Positions 3,554 through 48,407 of a stretch of DNA of 64,000 nucleotides are shown here, in pieces. Numbering within the stretch: position 1 is the first letter of the stretch; each line of letters starts with the position of its first letter. This DNA comes from Patescibacteria group bacterium (GTDB taxonomy: Bacteria > Patescibacteriota > Minisyncoccia > Phycocordibacterales > UBA918): the NCBI GenBank assembly GCA_040386275.1, contig JAZKFU010000002.1, positions 16,858 through 80,857 of the forward strand. The letters are read 5' to 3'. A program made the position numbers and the translations under genes. The notes below the pieces were generated by a model that saw only the letters and a list, made by a program, of their open reading frames with translations, had not been told where the DNA came from and ran no database searches.

Positions 3554-3664
3554 ATGGTTGGTGGGGAAACTATACCGCATTTACGGGTGGGGTACAACGA
3601 GTGGTAAAAGTAAGTTTCTGTGACATACTAGAAAGGGAATGTAACGTAACAGCGGGATATTATC

Positions 3665-15858: not shown

Positions 15859-15945
15859 GGAGAAGTGTCAGAGTGGTCTATCGTGTTTCCTTGCTAAGGA
15901 AATAGGGGTTTGCGCCCCTCGGAGGTTCGAATCCTCTCTTCTCCG
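15859..15945 (+). tRNA. tRNA-Ser, anticodon GCU
   Basis: Acceptor GGAGAAG/CTTCTCC, anticodon loop TTGCTAA, long variable arm, T-arm GGAGG-TTCGAAT-CCTCT, discriminator G, no CCA. Confidence 0.8.
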
Positions 15946-16242
15946 CAAATACCAAAACCCAAACAAAGCCTAAGCTTTGTTTGGGTTTTGTTGTATTTGC
16001 GCGAGAAGAGAGGATTCGAAAAGGTTGCCAGCTATTTTGCAAAAATAGCGACTGTCAATTGAGCGAGCGTTATAAAAATTTATTTTTATAACCGAGTGAA
16101 AGCAGACAGAAAGCTCTGCTTACAACCTATACTGGTCTGTAAGCAGAGCTTTCTTTCACTGCATTCGCAACATAAATAAAAGTAAATTTTTTATTTAGTT
16201 ACTCATTTGTGAAAGTAACAACCGAATCCTCTCTTCTCCGCG
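15946..16242 (+). repeat. tRNA-3'-end composite repeat unit (subfamily 1) downstream of tRNA-Ser(GCU)
   Basis: T1 hairpin AAAACCCAAACAAAGC-CTAA-GCTTTGTTTGGGTTTT (15954-15989). Inverted tRNA 3' copy GCGCGAGAAGAGAGGATTCGAA (15999-16020). Core AAGGTTGCCAGCTATTTTGCAAAAATAGCGACTG plus long hairpin AGAAAGCTCTGCTTACA / TGTAAGCAGAGCTTTCT. Direct copy CCGAATCCTCTCTTCTCCGC (16222-16242). Confidence 0.6.
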
Positions 16243-16505: not shown

Positions 16506-17987
16506 CTATTTAGTATACTCGGAAATTGCATTCATAAACACCTCGCCAAATTGAGTGAGCTTTTTCTCACCGACTCCGTTAATTGCTAAAAAATCAGCAG
16601 GGTTCGTGGGCTGATGATGAGCGAGTTCTCGTAGCGTCTTATCACCAAACACAATATACGCCGGGACACCTAAGCGAGTAGCTTCAAGCGTGCGTACCTG
16701 GCGTAACACTTCAAATAAATCTGTATCGTAGTTAATATCGGGGAGGGCAACCAATGATTTGGGCGCTTTAGCTTTTTTAAGTGTGGCGTGTACGAAGGGT
16801 GTGCCTGGGGTGCAAGTGTCGCAATTGCCACAATTACTCACTGAAAAGTCTTCATTAAAGTATTGAAGTAAAAACTTTCGCCGGCACGCTCTCATAGTGC
16901 CGTACTCAACAGATTGATTTAAGTTATTTTGGACGTGGATTTTTTCATCGGAATCCGCTAACTGTCGAATAAAGAAATCGTGTTTAAATTTATCAGCCGC
17001 CGAGTATAAAAGTACACAACGGGCAGGCAACCCATCACGACCGGCTCGTCCGGTTTCTTGGTAATAGCCTTCAATTGATTTAGGTAAGCTGTGGTGAATC
17101 ACTAATCGTACATCAGGTTTATCAATACCCATTCCAAAGGCAATGGTAGCCACCATAATCTGGATTTCATCACGAATAAATTTTTCCTGATTTTCTCGCC
17201 TTCTATCAGCTCCCAGTCCTGCATGATAGGTTCCGGCTTTATATCCATAGGCGGATAATTTTTCAGCAATTGATTCGGTGTCTTTGCGTGAAAAGCAGTA
17301 AATAATAATACTTTGTTCCGGATGACTGGCGACCAGGGTGGCTATGGTTTTAAAAGAGTCTTTTTTAGGTAATACTTCGTATCGTAGATTCGGACGATTA
17401 AAACTAGACGTGAATATTTTAGGGGTGGGCAAATCAAGTTGCTGCACAATATCAGCCTGCACTTTTTTGGTGGCGGTAGCGGTAAGGGCAATAATCGGAA
17501 TATTCGGAAATTTTGACCGTAAATATTTTAAGTTGCGGTATTCTGGCCTAAAATCATGGCCCCATTCGGAAATACAGTGCGCTTCATCAATCGCAAAGAG
17601 ACAGATAGGGAGCGTGTGTAGCAATGCTTCAAATGATGACATGGCTAACCGCTCCGGGGCAATGTACAGAATTTTAATAATTCCCTGTTTGGTTTTTTCT
17701 ATAACTATATCAATTTCGTCACGTCCCATACTACTGTTGATCATAGCGGCACTAATACCATTGCCCGCAAGCGCGTCCACTTGATCCTTCATGAGGGAAA
17801 TAAGGGGAGAGACAACGACGGTCAGTCCGTCTTGCAAAAGAGCAGGTAATTGAAAACAGAGTGATTTTCCACCTCCGGTTGGCATCAGTACGACACAATC
17901 TTTTTTATCAAGTACGGTTTGAATAATGTCTTGTTGCAAAGGCCTAAAGGTGTCATAACCAAAATATTGTTTAAGAGTAGCGTGCAT
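16506..17987 (-). CDS. recQ: ATP-dependent DNA helicase RecQ
   Basis: 493 aa with 'DEAHCISEWGHDFRPEY', zinc-binding 'CGNCDTC' and C-terminal HRDC-like segment. Confidence 0.85.
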   Translation of the reverse strand: MHATLKQYFGYDTFRPLQQDIIQTVLDKKDCVVLMPTGGGKSLCFQLPALLQDGLTVVVSPLISLMKDQVDALAGNGISAAMINSSMGRDEIDIVIEKTKQGIIKILYIAPERLAMSSFEALLHTLPICLFAIDEAHCISEWGHDFRPEYRNLKYLRSKFPNIPIIALTATATKKVQADIVQQLDLPTPKIFTSSFNRPNLRYEVLPKKDSFKTIATLVASHPEQSIIIYCFSRKDTESIAEKLSAYGYKAGTYHAGLGADRRRENQEKFIRDEIQIMVATIAFGMGIDKPDVRLVIHHSLPKSIEGYYQETGRAGRDGLPARCVLLYSAADKFKHDFFIRQLADSDEKIHVQNNLNQSVEYGTMRACRRKFLLQYFNEDFSVSNCGNCDTCTPGTPFVHATLKKAKAPKSLVALPDINYDTDLFEVLRQVRTLEATRLGVPAYIVFGDKTLRELAHHQPTNPADFLAINGVGEKKLTQFGEVFMNAISEYTK

Positions 17988-18575: not shown

Positions 18576-18709
18576 TCTATACTGACGAGCGTCCAGGGAG
18601 GACTTGCCCAGTGGGTAAAACATGAACTGCTTCATGTTTTACCGCGTAGCGAGGCAGACACGAGGCCAATCTCTCTGCAGGGCGACAATTTGAACGAAGT
18701 GAATATACT

Positions 18710-18796
18710 GGAGGATTGGCCGAGTGGCTGAAGGCAGCGGTTTACTAAACCGCCAGAGGGTAAAACTTCTCGTGAGTTCGAATCTCACATCCTCCG
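18710..18796 (+). tRNA. Type-II tRNA, Ser-like, with anticodon loop TTACTAA (apparent anticodon ACU)
   Basis: Acceptor GGAGGAT/ATCCTCC, Ser-like D-arm GCCGAGTGGCTGAAGGC, anticodon stem GCGGT/ACCGC, 18-nt variable arm, T-arm GTGAG-TTCGAAT-CTCAC, discriminator G. Confidence 0.65.
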
Positions 18797-18957
18797 CACA
18801 TACCAAAACCCAAACAAAGCTTAGGCTTTGTTTGGGTTTTGTTGTATGCGCGCGAAGATGTGAGATTCGAAGCCCGATTGAGATATTTTGGAGCGTAGCG
18901 AACATAAATATCCAATTGGGGTACTGATCATGTAAGGTTCGAATCTCACATCCTCCG
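18797..18957 (+). repeat. tRNA-3'-end composite repeat unit SerL-1 (subfamily 2)
   Basis: T1 hairpin 18805-18840, nearly identical to the unit at 15954. Inverted copy GCGCGCGAAGATGTGAGATTCGAA (18848-18871). Core contains GGAGCGTAGCGAA. Direct copy GGTTCGAATCTCACATCCTCCG (18936-18957). Confidence 0.6.
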
Positions 18958-19158
18958 CCCGTATAAAATACCGCCTGTAAGGGCGGTTATTTTATTGGGC
19001 GGAGGATGAGCGAGTGACTAATGTCACTCGCGGTGAGATTCGAAAGACGGAAGCATGTCGCTCTGCGACAGCTGAGTCGGGGTCGAGAGTACTTACTAGA
19101 ATCAGAGCGTAGCGAATGATTATAGTTAGTAACTCGTGACCGAATCTCACATCCTCCG
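18958..19158 (+). repeat. tRNA-3'-end composite repeat unit SerL-2 (subfamily 2), in tandem
   Basis: Hairpin AAAATACCGCC-TGTAA-GGGCGGTTATTTT. Inverted copy GGGCGGAGGATG-[AGCGAGTGACTAATGTCACTCGC]-GGTGAGATTCGAA (18997-19044). Core AGACGGAAGCATGTCGCTCTGCGACAG...GTCGGGGTCGAGA plus GAGCGTAGCGAA. Direct copy CCGAATCTCACATCCTCCG (19140-19158). Confidence 0.6.
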
Positions 19159-19196
19159 CCCGCATAATCATCAATAAATTTGATATAATTAAAAAC

Positions 19197-19523
19197 ATGT
19201 CAATAGAAAAATTAAACCATAGCAGTCAAAATGAAAGTGACTTTGAGCAAAGAATGCAGGTTGAATACATCTCTCATATAATCGATAGTTTGATTAAAAT
19301 TGAAGTTTCAGTAACTGACCTCGAAGACAGGGATCATTTAAAAGATGTTCTGTCACAATCTCGATACGATTATGAGGAGATGCCTGAATCTCATATGGAT
19401 GAAAGTGAATTAGCGAAAGAAAAAGAGGCCTTACATGCGCTTGCTGAATTGGTGGGTAACCCTGAATTATCAAATGACCAAAGGGAAGAACTAATTAAGC
19501 AGAGACTTTCAAGCTGGTTCTAA
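19197..19523 (+). CDS. Hypothetical acidic protein, 108 aa, carried inside the tandem repeat array
   Basis: ORF flanked by direct copies of the tRNA 3' end. Acidic and helical, with no known motif. Confidence 0.45.
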   Translation: MSIEKLNHSSQNESDFEQRMQVEYISHIIDSLIKIEVSVTDLEDRDHLKDVLSQSRYDYEEMPESHMDESELAKEKEALHALAELVGNPELSNDQREELIKQRLSSWF

Positions 19524-19544
19524 CATCGTCCCATAACGCCCGCA

Positions 19545-19770
19545 AATACCAAAACCCAAACAAAGCCTAAGCTTTGTTTGGGTTTTGTTGTATGTGCGCG
19601 AGGATGTGAGATTCGAAAGGCACAGGCATGTTTTTACTCTTCCTAAAGTAAAAACAGCGGGAGAAACAGTGTCTAAACACTGTTTCTCGGGTAGCGAACA
19701 CTTAGTAGAATCTGCACGCAGTGCAAGATTATACTTAGTGATTCGTGAACGAATCTCACATCCGTGTACC
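19545..19770 (+). repeat. tRNA-3'-end composite repeat unit SerL-3 (subfamily 2)
   Basis: Remnant CGCCCGCAAATACC, then T1 hairpin 19551-19586 identical to 15954-15989. Inverted copy GTGCGCGAGGATGTGAGATTCGAA (19594-19617). Core has GGGTAGCGAACACTTAGTAGA...TTAGTGATTCGTGA. Degenerate direct copy ACGAATCTCACATCC (19749-19763). Confidence 0.55.
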
Positions 19771-36462: not shown

Positions 36463-36473
36463 GAATTAAAACT

Positions 36474-36690
36474 GGGTTCCGGAATCGAGTCACGAATCAC
36501 TAAGTATATTATTTCGCTACGCTCATAATCTACTAAGTGTTCTTGACCACACCTCGCGGTTTTCTTTTCTGGTAAAAAGAAAACATCGCTGCGGTCGTTC
36601 GATTCCGCCGAAAGCAAAGCAGTTTGCTTTCTGAACTCCGCAACAAAAACGTAAAACCTCTGTCAATAAAGACAGAGGTTTTACGTAATG
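36474..36690 (-). repeat. tRNA-3'-end composite repeat unit (subfamily 2) downstream of initiator-like tRNA-Met, minus orientation
   Basis: In tRNA orientation: hairpin AAAACCTCTGTC-TTTATT-GACAGAGGTTTT; inverted copy TTGCGG-[AGTTCAGAAAGCAAACTGCTTTGCTTTC]-GGCGGAATCGAA; core with GAGCGTAGCGAA...TTAGTGATTCGTGA; direct copy CTCGATTCCGGAACCC (plus 36474-36489). Confidence 0.55.
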
Positions 36691-36761
36691 TTGCGGGTTC
36701 CGGAATCGAACCGGAGTCTGGAGGTTATGAGCCTCCCGAGGTACCTCTCCTCTAACCCGCT
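36691..36761 (-). tRNA. tRNA-Met (CAU), initiator-like
   Basis: Anticodon loop CTCATAA, A1:A72 mismatch, A11:U24 in the D-stem, T-arm TCCGG-TTCGATT-CCGGA, no CCA. Confidence 0.7.
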
Positions 36762-37542: not shown

Positions 37543-37694
37543 TTGATAGAGTGCTATATTAGTGGTATTCTGTTGCCACTTTTCTCTAGGTTAATGCTAG
37601 AGAAAATTGTATCCAGGGCGTATCGGTGTAAGCAAAGCTTTCACCGACTGCGTTCGAAGAAAATGTAAGCGAGCTTCCATTTTGCTTCTCACTT

Positions 37695-37845: not shown

Positions 37846-37919
37846 GCGGGCGTAGCTCAGCTGGTTAGAGCGCTTCCCTGTCACGGAAGAGGCCGTGGGT
37901 TCGAATCCCATCGCTCGCG
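37846..37919 (+). tRNA. tRNA-Asp, anticodon GUC
   Basis: Acceptor GCGGGCG/CGCTCGC, anticodon stem CTTCC/GGAAG, loop CTGTCAC, T-arm GTGGG-TTCGAAT-CCCAT, discriminator G. Confidence 0.8.
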
Positions 37920-38084
37920 CAAATGAAAGAGCCCTTCGGGGCTTTTTCGTTTACGCGAGCGAAAGAAAGCGCCTGCGCGCTTTCTGGTGGGATTCGAAAG
38001 CCGGAGTCATGTCGCCCTGCGACAGACGAGACGGGGTCGCGAAAATTTCTGAAAGAAATTATTTGTGACCGAATCCCATCGCTC
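37920..38084 (+). repeat. tRNA-3'-end composite repeat unit (subfamily 2) downstream of tRNA-Asp
   Basis: Hairpin AAAGAGCCC-TTCG-GGGCTTTTT. Inverted copy CGCGAGCG-[AAAGAAAGCGCCTGCGCGCTTTCTGGT]-GGGATTCGAA (37954-37998). Core AGCCGGAGTCATGTCGCCCTGCGACAGACGAGACGGGGTCGCGA. Direct copy CCGAATCCCATCGCTC (38069-38084). Confidence 0.6.
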
Positions 38085-38126
38085 CCACTCCTTCAAACAT
38101 CATCCCCCATCTGCTACACTACCCCC

Positions 38127-46287: not shown

Positions 46288-46443
46288 TGCCTGATCGTCT
46301 AATGGTAAGCAAAGCTTTCTTGAACGGCACTCAGACAATACATACAAGCAAGCTTTAATGTAAGTCTTCGTTTGTTCAAGTAGGACTCTGGTTTTTGGTA
46401 CCAGCTATTGAGGAAAGAATTCTAAGAATTCGAGTCTCATAGG
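46288..46443 (+). pseudogene. Degraded duplicate of tRNA-Gln interrupted in the D-loop by a 74-nt insertion
   Basis: TGCCTGATCGTCTAATGGTA matches the tRNA-Gln 5' part. After the 46308-46381 insertion, AGGACTCTGGTTTTTGGTACCAGCTATTG continues (anticodon arm intact), but the T-arm and acceptor 3' strand are divergent (GAATTCTAAGAATTCGAGTCTCATAGG). Confidence 0.45.
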
Positions 46444-46456
46444 AAACTAAATTAAT

Positions 46457-46527
46457 TGCCTGATCGTCTAATGGTAGGACTCTGGTTTTTGGTACCAGCT
46501 ATTGGGGTTCGAGTCCCTGTCAGGCAG
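46457..46527 (+). tRNA. tRNA-Gln, anticodon UUG
   Basis: Acceptor TGCCTGA/TCAGGCA, anticodon stem CTGGT/ACCAG, loop TTTTGGT, T-loop TTCGAGT, discriminator G, no CCA. Confidence 0.8.
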
Positions 46528-46763
46528 CGAGTAGAAAAGACATCCCTCGGGATGTTTTTTCGTATCGCTGCCTGACAGGCGCAGCTTTCTGAAAGAAAGC
46601 GTCTGCGCGGACTCGAAAAGGTTGCCAGCTATTTTGAAAAAATAGCGACTGATAATTGAATGAGTGAAATGAAAATTTATTTTCATTTCCGAGTGAATGC
46701 AATCAGGAAGCTTTGCTTACAACCTGTACTGAAGCTGTAAGCTTCGAGTCCCTGTCAGGCAGC
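46528..46763 (+). repeat. tRNA-3'-end composite repeat unit (subfamily 1) downstream of tRNA-Gln
   Basis: Hairpin AAAAGACATCCC-TCGG-GATGTTTTTT. Inverted copy CGCTGCCTGACAGG-[CGCAGCTTTCTGAAAGAAAGCGTCTGCGC]-GGACTCGAA (46566-46617). Core AAGGTTGCCAGCTATTTTGAAAAAATAGCGACTG...GAGTGAA...GCTTACAACCTGTACTGAAGCTGTAAGC shares about 85% with the unit at 16021-16160. Direct copy TTCGAGTCCCTGTCAGGCAGC (46743-46763). Confidence 0.6.
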
Positions 46764-46836
46764 AAAATATTGACAATAAAATTTATTATTGTATTATCAA
46801 ATTTAAATAGCTCATTAAATCTTAGAGGAGGTGCTA

Positions 46837-47448
46837 ATGACACGTTCAACTATTGCCCGGATCAATGCGATCTGGGGTCTGCTGGGTGGAGATGAGGTTG
46901 TTGACCAAATTCTTTCTGGGAAGAAGGTGGTGCGGGTTGAAAATTCATACATCAGCTCTGATTCTCAACAGGCACAGCTTCCCAAGCACCAAATCAACAC
47001 CCAGGAGTTCTATGCTCAGCAGGGATGGTTGAATGTAAGGTCAGATTTGAAAGAGTTGCTAAATACTGGGTTGCTCGGTTCCAATGTAATGGTTGAAAGT
47101 ACAGCATTCCATTATCTTGACCTTAATGAGCCAAAAACAGGTCATCAGATTTTAGAACATATTTCTCCGAAGGGTGTGTTTAGAAATCCAGTGAACTTCT
47201 TTGCGTACTTATCAATACTGATCAGTGCGCAGCGCATGTTTCCTCTCCAGGAAGTTTTGGCAGATGAAGGTTTAGCAAGTATCTTTTTTGTTCATCATAA
47301 TGGTGTCGAGTACGCAGTCGTTGCTTATGTTGGAGACTCCAATCATGTGGATGAATTGACAGAATGCAACCTCGAGTGGAATTGTACCCTCTACGATCTT
47401 GGGGAAGAGTTTGGTGTCGGAGACAGAGTTTTTTATCAGACTCACTGA
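46837..47448 (+). CDS. Hypothetical protein, 203 aa
   Basis: GAGGAGG SD 6 nt upstream of ATG. No recognised domain. Lies immediately distal to the tRNA-Gln repeat unit. Confidence 0.5.
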   Translation: MTRSTIARINAIWGLLGGDEVVDQILSGKKVVRVENSYISSDSQQAQLPKHQINTQEFYAQQGWLNVRSDLKELLNTGLLGSNVMVESTAFHYLDLNEPKTGHQILEHISPKGVFRNPVNFFAYLSILISAQRMFPLQEVLADEGLASIFFVHHNGVEYAVVAYVGDSNHVDELTECNLEWNCTLYDLGEEFGVGDRVFYQTH

Positions 47449-47606
47449 GCGGCATTTAAGCTCACAGGAACAGGCCACGGCCAGATTTCTGTGGGCTGTT
47501 TTTGTGTATAAGTTCTAACATTGTCCCATACAGCCAGCACAATAAGTAATTTGTCCAATATTACGCCTTAGTGTAGGGGAAAATAAGACCGGGTCACGAT
47601 TGCGTC

Positions 47607-48407
47607 ATGGTACCATCAGTTCACATGAATTCCTCAAGTATAACCTTACCTACTACCATTGATGAAGTGATTGCGCATTTAGATGCTATCGTATTAACGT
47701 GTGAAGCTACGGGTTGTCGGATGGGTTATTTCCCCGCAATGTACAATCGGGTCACGAGACAAGTTAAGCAGCGCATCCTCGAAGGGTCTTTTGAAGATAA
47801 CGAACGCATGGAGCGGTTTGATGTTATTTTTGCTAACCGGTACTTAGTCGCGTACTATGCGTACGCCCAAAATAAGCCGTGTTCTGAATCGTGGAAAATA
47901 ACGTTTGAGGCGTCTAAAAAATGGAGCCCAATGGTGATTCAGCATTTGATTGCCAGTATGAATGCACACATTTGTTTAGATCTGGGTATATCAGCGGCAG
48001 AAACCGAAACACACAATTTACTGTCACTAAAAAATGACTTTGATCAGGTTAATGACATATTAGATTCACTGATTGAAGAAGTTGAAGCAGAACTTCGAGA
48101 AATATTTCATCCACTGACAACCTTTGATAAAATAACGGGAAACTCATATTGGCCCATTGCTCATCTGGGCATTATCAAATCTCGTACTGATGCTTGGCAT
48201 GTAGCTGAAGCATACGCCCAACTACAAACAGATAAAGAACGACAAATATTCATTCAGTTGCGTGATCATCACGTGGCGGTGATTGGAAAGAGGATTCTGC
48301 AACCGCCTAAACTGGTACGACTGCTGGTCGGAAAGGTGCGTGATTTTGAGAAAGGTACGGTTGCGGATAAAGTACACATTATGAATCGGAAAATTGTTCG
48401 CAACTAA
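47607..48407 (+). CDS. Hypothetical protein, 266 aa
   Basis: ORF only. Predicted helical with no recognised motif. Confidence 0.5.
   Translation: MVPSVHMNSSSITLPTTIDEVIAHLDAIVLTCEATGCRMGYFPAMYNRVTRQVKQRILEGSFEDNERMERFDVIFANRYLVAYYAYAQNKPCSESWKITFEASKKWSPMVIQHLIASMNAHICLDLGISAAETETHNLLSLKNDFDQVNDILDSLIEEVEAELREIFHPLTTFDKITGNSYWPIAHLGIIKSRTDAWHVAEAYAQLQTDKERQIFIQLRDHHVAVIGKRILQPPKLVRLLVGKVRDFEKGTVADKVHIMNRKIVRN

Follow-up and report, generated by a model that had tools for sequence, protein, structure and literature searches.

Behind a serine-type tRNA gene of a Patescibacteria group bacterium (GenBank assembly GCA_040386275.1, contig JAZKFU010000002.1), the last 21 nucleotides (nt) of that gene recur in both orientations around small structured cores and a short open reading frame (ORF). 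We lean, without great confidence, towards reading this region as an accretion array of non-autonomous, site-specific mobile DNA cassettes at a tRNA 3′ end. The repeats are statistically significant, the array is modular, its stems covary, its architecture is spread across Patescibacteria, and strains gain, lose and swap pieces at the repeat boundaries. These organisms have tiny genomes and few recognised mobile elements, and their exchange of accessory genes is poorly understood. All coordinates below refer to the analysed stretch of 64,000 nt (positions 16,858 to 80,857 of the contig, forward strand), hereafter the window; loci elsewhere carry our own numbers (L001 and so on).

The array behind tRNA-Ser(ACU)

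We designate the repeated sequence T. It begins with the first T-loop base (position 54), takes in the last 21 nt of the tRNA gene up to the discriminator, and lies at 18776–18796 in the anchoring gene; its inverted copy is T′. With R for a trailer plus a terminator-like hairpin and X for a structured core, a unit has the order T / R / T′ / X / T. Between 18776 and 19763, T is present in four direct and three inverted copies. With no more than one mismatch, six copies of its 14-mer CGAATCTCACATCC are present (direct at 18779, 18940, 19141, and 19750; inverted at 18856 and 19602), against 0.01 occurrences expected from shuffled sequences, and the third inverted copy is divided by a 24-nt hairpin into parts at 18997–19008 and 19033–19044. 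The preliminary description of this DNA had rightly recognized repeated tRNA 3′ ends with inverted copies after the Ser tRNA. It left the inverted copy without explanation, yet T′ is the part that separates these arrays from ordinary remnants of attachment (att) sites. Chance, an assembly artefact, or immobile tRNA pseudogene debris is scarcely credible as the source of this pattern: contigs of other assemblies do break at these repeats, but the copy number is far from the chance expectation, the array was assembled independently in a second metagenome-assembled genome (MAG), and the architecture is found in many unrelated assemblies.

All parts of the array lie on the forward strand. Unit 1 starts with R1 (18797–18853), whose inverted repeats form terminator-like hairpin A (stem-loop 18804–18841), the apex of a T-R-T′ palindrome. 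It continues with T′1 (GAAGATGTGAGATTCGAA, 18854–18871), a core of the X_A2 family (18872–18935, fold z = −6.4), and T1 (18936–18958), a direct copy of the tRNA 3′ end that is identical at 22/22 positions. The X_A2 core, read from the sequence, consists of a hairpin with a AGCGTAGCGAA loop, a GGTACTGA junction, and a terminal hairpin that closes on the GGTTC of T; it belongs, as a diverged member, to the X_A family and is homologous to the core in the 3′ unit of another array (L002). Unit 2 comprises R2 (18959–18996, with terminator-like hairpin B, an inverted repeat, at 18970–18987), the split T′2 (18997–19044, with the inserted hairpin at 19009–19032 between the acceptor part and the T-arm part), a core of the X_B family (19045–19139), and the direct copy T2 (CCGAATCTCACATCCTCCG, 19140–19158). 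This X_B core was delimited by motif searches and by an alignment of six X_B copies; it contains a CATGTCGC..GCGACAG hairpin, CGGGGTCGAG, a long imperfect stem capped by GAGCGTAGCGAA, and CTCGTGAC.

The third unit of the preliminary description does contain the ORF reported there (19197–19523), but it is a composite of an ORF cassette (19159–19543) and a hairpin unit (19544–19763). The cassette has an extended −10-like sequence, TTTGATATAATT, at 19179–19190, and ends in a pseudo-T (19517–19543) that carries the conserved 3′ module GTTCTAACATCGTCCCATAACGCCCGC. The hairpin unit that follows consists of R3 (19544–19599), T′3 (19600–19617, 18/18 complementary to T), an X_B core with three hairpins (19618–19748, fold z = −8.7), and a truncated direct copy, T3 (ACGAATCTCACATCC, 19749–19763), which is the distal end of the array. 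As the preliminary description had it, hairpin A of R3 (19550–19587) is identical to the hairpin that follows tRNA-Ser(GCU) at 15953–15990.

Two long pairings organize each unit. One is a continuous palindrome of 45 bp that runs through T, the trailer, R, and T′ (18776–18871 in unit 1; DNA fold −41.4 kcal/mol, z = −13.8), and the other is a long stem around X, closed by T′ and the next T (z = −6 to −10 for T′-X-T folds). The three units draw their cores from two families: unit 1 has X_A2, and units 2 and 3 have X_B. R and X assort independently, because the R of units 1 and 3 is the hairpin of tRNA-Ser(GCU), where it is joined to an X_A core; both kinds of module are shuffled among units and among genomes. 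The earlier picture of progressively degenerate copies of one element thus gives way to a modular one.

The anchoring gene (18710–18796/7) was called by ARAGORN and scores 54.3 bits with the Rfam tRNA model. Its anticodon loop, TTACTAA, is read as anticodon ACU with A34, and the sequence is identical in the sister strain (L001). Among bacteria, A34 is unusual outside tRNA-Arg(ACG), and a normal tRNA-Ser(GCU) lies 2.8 kb upstream.

Units at other tRNAs and in other genomes

Five of the eight tRNA genes of the window carry R/T′/X/T downstream, namely Ser(ACU), Ser(GCU), Gln, Asp, and Met, and T and T′ match the local tRNA at each. The Thr, Ile, and second Met tRNAs (Met2) are without such a unit, and within the window the X motifs are confined to the five loci. 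All five unit-bearing tRNAs are intact, being called by ARAGORN and scoring 44–71 bits with the Rfam tRNA model. At tRNA-Ser(GCU) (15859–16241, forward strand), the gene (15859–15945) is followed by hairpin A (15953–15990), T′ (16003–16020), an X_A core with insertions (16021–16221), and T (16222–16241). The tRNA-Met locus is on the reverse strand (36471–36761; gene 36690–36761) and has a hairpin, a split T′, an X_B core, and a T copy at 36471–36488. A hairpin and a split T′ are also found at tRNA-Asp (37846–38086, forward strand; gene 37846–37919), together with X_B (37999–38068) and T (38069–38086). At tRNA-Gln (46457–47540, forward strand), the gene (46457–46527) is followed by an R-T′-X_A-T unit (46529–46762), a 203-amino-acid (aa) ORF (46837–47448), and a pseudo-T (47512–47540). 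Compared with canonical X_A of other genomes, both X_A copies of this genome have the same ~70-nt insertion (at 16045–16115 and 46642–46712) between GCGAC and CAACC of the second hairpin; either one copy derives from the other, or this nested insertion is itself site-specific.

To follow the cores beyond this genome, we scanned one genome per prokaryotic species for an X_A 17-mer and obtained 103 matches, about 26 of them with a whole X_A core. All of the ~26 are from Patescibacteria MAGs (Saccharibacteria, Paceibacteria, Kaiserbacteria, Parcubacteria, Elulimicrobium, and unclassified lineages). A tRNA on the same strand ends ~65–85 nt upstream of X_A in 21 of the 26, and the linked tRNAs have nine identities (Met, Gln, Ala, Ser, Asp, His, Leu, Arg, and Ile). 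Tandem units were seen at four loci (L065, L023, L060, and L027), and L095/L100 also form an array. Relatives with 58–72% PilM identity keep the comF–pilM region and have other DNA beyond comF, where the array lies; in one of them (L108), that DNA includes a tRNA-Leu with an X_B unit. Contigs of independent assemblies of the window's lineage (L001, L131, L132, L135, and L136) end inside tRNAs or shared R hairpins. Since assemblies break at these repeats, such loci are likely to be under-represented or fragmented in MAGs.

Williams, in 2002, reportedly found an identity block from the T-loop to the 3′ end to be typical of tRNA-integrating islands. The islands of this kind with which we compared the array (Islander, the tycheposons of Prochlorococcus, and cis-mobilizable and integrative and conjugative elements) have the same target, the 3′ part of a tRNA gene, and follow the same accretion logic: the gene is restored, a displaced 3′ fragment is left as a direct repeat, and successive insertions push older ones outward (PMC4383910; 10.1101/2020.12.28.424599). 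They also carry defence and ORFan cargo whose content differs among strains. Judged by the features that Islander uses, the present loci have a displaced 3′ fragment (at 18936, 19140, and 19749, and at four other tRNAs), an intact tRNA, and variable content at tRNA-Gln; no tyrosine or serine integrase lies within the inserts, as the units are non-coding and the cargo consists of a 108-aa ORFan, a 203-aa ORFan, a DUF2283 protein, and AbiL. They further differ from islands in that the units are only 160–250 bp, include an inverted copy of the att core and a conserved structured core, and alternate with single-gene-sized ORF cassettes that have a conserved promoter and 3′ end; in the collections searched, they are restricted to Patescibacteria.

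These likenesses raise the explanation that the units are decayed remnants of integrase-bearing islands or prophages at the tRNA T-loop, with X a conserved attP arm and the genes deleted. T indeed corresponds to the identity block, T-loop to 3′ end, typical of islands at tRNA genes (PMC4383910), and tandem accretion with partial tRNAs is known from tycheposons (10.1101/2020.12.28.424599). We nevertheless consider this origin unlikely: the compact R-T′-X-T form is the rule in ~26 genomes and not an occasional product of decay, no full-length integrase-bearing version was seen near 27 related loci among the top 25 protein families listed, and classical attP or attR sites are without an 18–20-nt inverted core copy. 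In addition, X_A is absent from IMG/VR (where the matches were chance 17-mers), from GenBank phages, and from PLSDB plasmids, which removes a phage or plasmid attP from the candidates for X.

In three places, X_A lies between the 5′ strand of the T-stem and the T-loop of a decayed tRNA copy, namely at L083, at L086, and in a pseudo-tRNA-Gln of the window (46288–46440). X might therefore be taken for an intron-like insertion at position 53/54, with the upstream T-R-T′ letting either T complete the tRNA, and introns are common in Patescibacteria tRNAs (PMC13011429). However, X (60–130 nt) matches no self-splicing family, and the interrupted copies are decayed pseudogenes beside intact paralogues. 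We know of no bacterium with the archaeal splicing endonuclease, which also counts against this explanation, and we hold it to be very improbable. A paper on group I introns in Patescibacteria tRNAs gives position 35/36 only.

The pseudo-tRNA-Gln is located just upstream of the intact tRNA-Gln, and its positions 1–20 and 21–48 are 100% identical to the gene. Its D-loop has a 72-nt insertion with an inverted repeat (cttgaac...gttcaag), to which a D-loop insertion in L086 is homologous, and in place of the T-arm there is what remains of the X_A terminal hairpin (GAATTC-TAA-GAATTC).

Exchange between sister strains and the cargo of the cassettes

A second MAG of the same species-level lineage, GCA_040384005.1, with flanks 98.8–100% identical to the window, served as the sister strain. 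It differs from the window at two of the unit loci, tRNA-Gln and tRNA-Met. At tRNA-Gln, the window has its R-T′-X_A-T unit between the tRNA end ...GTCAGGCAGC and AAAATATTGACAATAAA, while the sister strain has a cassette with a 66-aa DUF2283 ORF between the same two boundaries, with flanks 98.8% identical. This cassette has a promoter-like TTGATATAATT and the 3′ end TTCTAACATCGTCCCAGACAGCCAGC. The replacement of a unit by an ORF cassette indicates that whole cassettes are exchanged at T boundaries.

At tRNA-Met, the sister strain has 83 extra bases inside X_B, within ~1.8 kb of otherwise identical sequence. Read on the tRNA strand, this 83-nt module comprises a CTGGGA-loop hairpin and an X_A-like core, whose second hairpin has compensatory changes (CCTTG/CAAGG) and whose last hairpin takes its final bases from the target (GAATTC-GTA-GAAT|TC). 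The module stands at GG|TCAAGA, a sequence similar to the beginning of a T-loop, and has neither a target-site duplication nor a T′. This indel and the interrupted tRNA copies at L083, at L086, and in the pseudo-tRNA-Gln imply that each X module acts as an insertion in its own right, placed at the 53/54 boundary of a T-loop-like sequence.

In its make-up, the 83-nt module comes closest to hairpin-rich derivatives of single-strand transposons. As with palindrome-associated transposable elements (PATEs) derived from IS200/IS605, and with REP doublets forming hairpins (REPINs) and their REP-associated tyrosine transposases (RAYTs), it has end hairpins, no terminal inverted repeats of its own, and no duplication, and it is fixed in orientation beside a short motif (GG|TTCRA; target found here, GG|TCAAGA). 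It differs from them in that the target is a tRNA T-loop and the last hairpin is completed by target bases; no Y1 HUH transposase or RAYT was seen within the window. A miniature inverted-repeat transposable element was rejected as a candidate: T′ and T vary with the neighbouring tRNA and not with the X family, the left copy is inverted instead of direct, and the 83-nt indel is without duplication.

The ORF cassettes are a second, distinct type of insert. Two parts of them are conserved: an extended −10-like TTTGATATAATT, and a 3′ module of the form GTTCTAACATCGTCCCA(T/G)A, behind which ~6 nt agree with the end of the local T. Five cassettes with unrelated cargo have the common 3′ module GTTCYAACRTYGTCCCAKA plus ~6 nt of the local T end; their cargo is the 108-aa ORF, its copy in L002, the 203-aa ORF (module at 47512), the DUF2283 ORF, and an AbiLi/AbiLii-like pair, whose cassette is 1.8 kb long. 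The last is from a Paceibacterota MAG (AbiLi, E = 1e-63) and sits between two identical R-T′-X_A-T units downstream of tRNA-Arg(TCG) (L095 and L100, JAIPIB010000004.1, ~46.6–48.8 kb). Because the 108-aa ORF has its own promoter and a 3′ module common to unrelated ORFs, it is the cargo of a distinct cassette type and not of a hairpin unit. The preliminary description had taken this ORF for the only protein cargo of any unit, whereas a 203-aa ORFan (46837–47448) forms a cassette after the tRNA-Gln unit. It had also suggested that the ORF could be the element's own function; nothing points there.

The 108-aa acidic ORF has dN/dS (the ratio of nonsynonymous to synonymous substitution rates) of 0.078 and dS of 1.08 relative to its L002 homologue, and this low ratio marks it as a real gene under purifying selection. 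Among 5.8 billion proteins, the search returned only the protein itself and this one homologue, which is 83% identical. The preliminary description had proposed to look for homologues beside tRNA 3′-end duplicates in other genomes, and the only close homologue proved to lie within an array of the same kind: an X_B core and a T copy come before it and an R-T′-X_A2-T unit comes after it, with other tRNA-end sequences. No Pfam or PADLOC match to the protein exceeded the threshold. The structure prediction proposed earlier yielded a low-confidence four-helix AlphaFold model (predicted local distance difference test score, pLDDT, 62), for which no fold match in the PDB reached E < 0.3. An exhaustive HMMER search gave about six small remote relatives, none of them annotated; the two genomic contexts inspected were uninformative.

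Pairing, possible mechanism, and competing explanations

Three X families, X_A, X_A2, and X_B, can be told apart; their stems covary, and in each the last hairpin pairs with the first bases of T. Canonical X_A consists of AAGGTTGCCAGCTATTTT-loop-AAAATAGCGACAACC, the junction TGTACTGA, and a 6-bp hairpin with a GTA triloop whose 3′ strand ends in the first three bases of T. This terminal hairpin is 99.3% paired and has compensatory changes at 5/6 pairs (0/500 shuffles). In X_B, which has the long imperfect stem capped by GAGCGTAGCGAA, the last hairpin is likewise completed by the start of T (GATTCG-TGAA-CGAATC), and in one hairpin of the unit-3 X_B the sister strain differs by a compensatory change from C-G to T-A. 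The end of T′ and the T-loop variant change in concert (CTCGAA/TTCGAG, CTTGAA/TTCAAG, and ATCGAA/TTCGAT).

Several simpler origins of T′ were excluded. At tRNA-Gln, the T-stem has two G·U pairs (5′ TGGGG, 3′ CCCTG) and T′ reads CAGGG, a true reverse complement, which rules out that T′ is a tRNA without its D and anticodon arms. A retroelement primer-binding site does not fit, as T′ has no TGG (complementary to CCA) before it and runs on into the complement of the gene trailer; for the same two reasons, T′ copies the gene and not the mature tRNA. Nor is it a target-site duplication of the T-loop, since the copy to the left of X is a reverse complement, with pairs 5–39 and 7–37 covarying as complements.

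The strong covariation of the X stems, with conserved junctions and loops, brings in the main rival, in which T′-X-T encodes a structured non-coding RNA or acts in cis as a 3′ element of the tRNA transcript. The T′/T helix would mimic the acceptor/T-stem of the neighbouring tRNA, X would be the functional core, and the arrays would have arisen by duplication; as a mimic of that helix, the RNA would be a substrate of RNase P, RNase Z, or the CCA-adding enzyme. The T′:T helix covaries with the tRNA, T shows no difference from the tRNA 3′ end in 15 of 20 genomes, X_A is conserved between lineages of class rank and always lies on the tRNA strand, and a compensatory change separates the two strains, all of which suits an RNA. 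However, a terminator-like hairpin with a T-run stands between the tRNA and T′, and no promoter is predicted before T′. An X_A module also occurs as the 83-nt indel within another X, without T′; units are interchangeable with ORF cassettes, and T′ is often incomplete. Searches with the Rfam 15 covariance models brought only tRNAs above threshold, the sub-threshold matches being generic long-hairpin miRNA models, so that a known ribozyme or RNA family is rejected for X; neither Rfam nor the searchable literature yielded a description of these elements. GTA triloops and GCGNAGC mini-hairpins, both typical of stable DNA hairpins, serve as loops here, which is a weak argument against an RNA. On balance, an RNA seems to us a doubtful but serious explanation.

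For the reading we favour, mobile DNA cassettes, the recombination or insertion site would be T as delimited above. Two types of insert would use it: hairpin units, which supply R, T′, and a three-hairpin core (X_A or X_B) and end in a copy of T, and ORF cassettes, which consist of one or two genes with an extended −10 promoter of their own and a T-like 3′ end that is conserved. Since each cassette ends in a T-like site, the next can land behind it, and arrays of the form T-(cassette-T)n would build up with the tRNA intact. The events may be catalysed in trans by a recombinase or an HUH-type transposase encoded elsewhere. On single-stranded DNA, T′:T and T-R-T′ would then be the site in its folded, hairpin state, comparable to integron attC or CTX-phage attP, and either selection or hairpin-templated correction might preserve the complementarity of T′ to T. 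If one strand of the folded T′:T hairpin crossed over with a target T, the product would have exactly the order T-R-T′-X-T, and tandem arrays would be possible. The preliminary description had inferred repeated site-specific insertion at a tRNA; products of insertion or recombination at the tRNA 3′ end are indeed supported by the five tRNAs of the window, the ~26 Patescibacteria genomes, and the cassette swap and 83-nt indel in the sister strain, although no integrase was found.

The topological reasoning derives from CTX phage, whose folded single-stranded attP is recombined with dif by Xer; Val et al., in 2005, are said to have described this integration. The topology of the integrated product would fit the present units, which differ in having no phage genome and in targeting a tRNA end and not dif. 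Integron arrays are alike in having small cassettes, many of them ORFan or non-coding, that each end in an imperfect palindrome able to fold, in a recombinase (here a putative one) that acts in trans, and in the match between the last bases of the site and what comes next; foldable palindromes do stand at the cassette ends here (the T′-X-T folds given above). In contrast to integrons, no intI was found among the ORFs of the window, the anchor is a tRNA gene end in place of attI and Pc, T′ ends in ..ATTCGAA and T starts with (G)TTCGAAT, unlike RYYYAAC/GTTRRRY, X is conserved and not variable, and the ORF cassettes have their own promoters. A bolder version of the cassette reading, which we put forward only tentatively, takes the tRNA 3′ end as attI-like and the folded T′-X-T as attC-like, so that the whole would be an integron-like cassette platform. 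T′ might then be a reprogrammable guide that base-pairs with the tRNA 3′ end and retargets the X_A or X_B scaffold to any tRNA, and a trans-acting enzyme would move the non-coding units and the promoter-bearing ORF cassettes, including defence genes.

Several points weigh against mobile cassettes. The ORFs of the window yielded no integrase, transposase, or HUH protein and no recombinase match in Pfam, and no recombinase recurs near the 27 related loci among the top 25 families listed, although one present only once could have escaped this listing. No known insertion chemistry accounts for where T′ comes from or what it does. Of 20 loci compared across genomes, 15 have a direct copy that matches tRNA positions 56–73 without a difference, while T′ is often incomplete; this contrast suggests selection or gene conversion on T rather than simple recency. 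The near-invariance of X_A across class-level lineages fits an RNA or protein-binding site with a host function as well as it fits recent spread. The tRNA-Gln swap could have been finished by homologous recombination after transformation instead of site-specific recombination. Finally, the Ser(ACU) array itself is the same in the two strains compared, in each of which it was assembled independently; the variation among related strains that the preliminary description looked for was not seen at this array.

On the cassette reading, these loci are a widespread, compact system of recombinase-less cassettes at tRNA ends, with defence genes, ORFans, and turnover between strains. The array follows the logic of tRNA-anchored integrative arrays in miniature, with a structured core and an inverted site copy added; if T′ were indeed a programmable guide and the enzyme new, it would go beyond such arrays. 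The X_A and X_B cores together with tRNA-matched repeats make a well-defined, searchable signature; searches with it could turn up a new enzyme of recombination or transposition whose targeting is programmed by base pairing, or else a new class of RNAs that mimic tRNAs.

Some smaller features accompany the units. Small hairpins are inserted in T′ at the acceptor/T-stem boundary, both in the window (19009–19032, 37962–37985, 46580–46609, and 36600–36630) and elsewhere (L009, L103, L038, and L064). Two kinds recur, one of the form GAAAGC...GCTTTC and one with a CTGGGAG loop on its stem; the 83-nt mobile X_A element also has the CTGGGA-loop hairpin, as its 5′ module. Between tRNA-Met2 and tRNA-Asp, the sister-strain contig L134 has, at ~3560–3660, a run of N and then ~90 nt upstream of tRNA-Asp that are unrelated to the window, which is either a scaffold gap or a further strain difference. 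ARAGORN also called a tRNA-His(ATG) at 47823–47903, inside an ORF with DUF5995 (47607–48407); it was not detected with Rfam and is probably a false positive. On the 5′ side, partial direct copies of tRNA 5′ ends lie 70–170 nt upstream of tRNA-Ser(ACU) (18597–18660), tRNA-Met2 (37622–37690), and tRNA-Gln (46288–46307). Each is followed by small hairpin insertions of the gtaagcaaagctttc type, and the one at tRNA-Met2 also has an inverted copy (CACCGAC); the arrangement looks like a mirror image of the 3′-side architecture.

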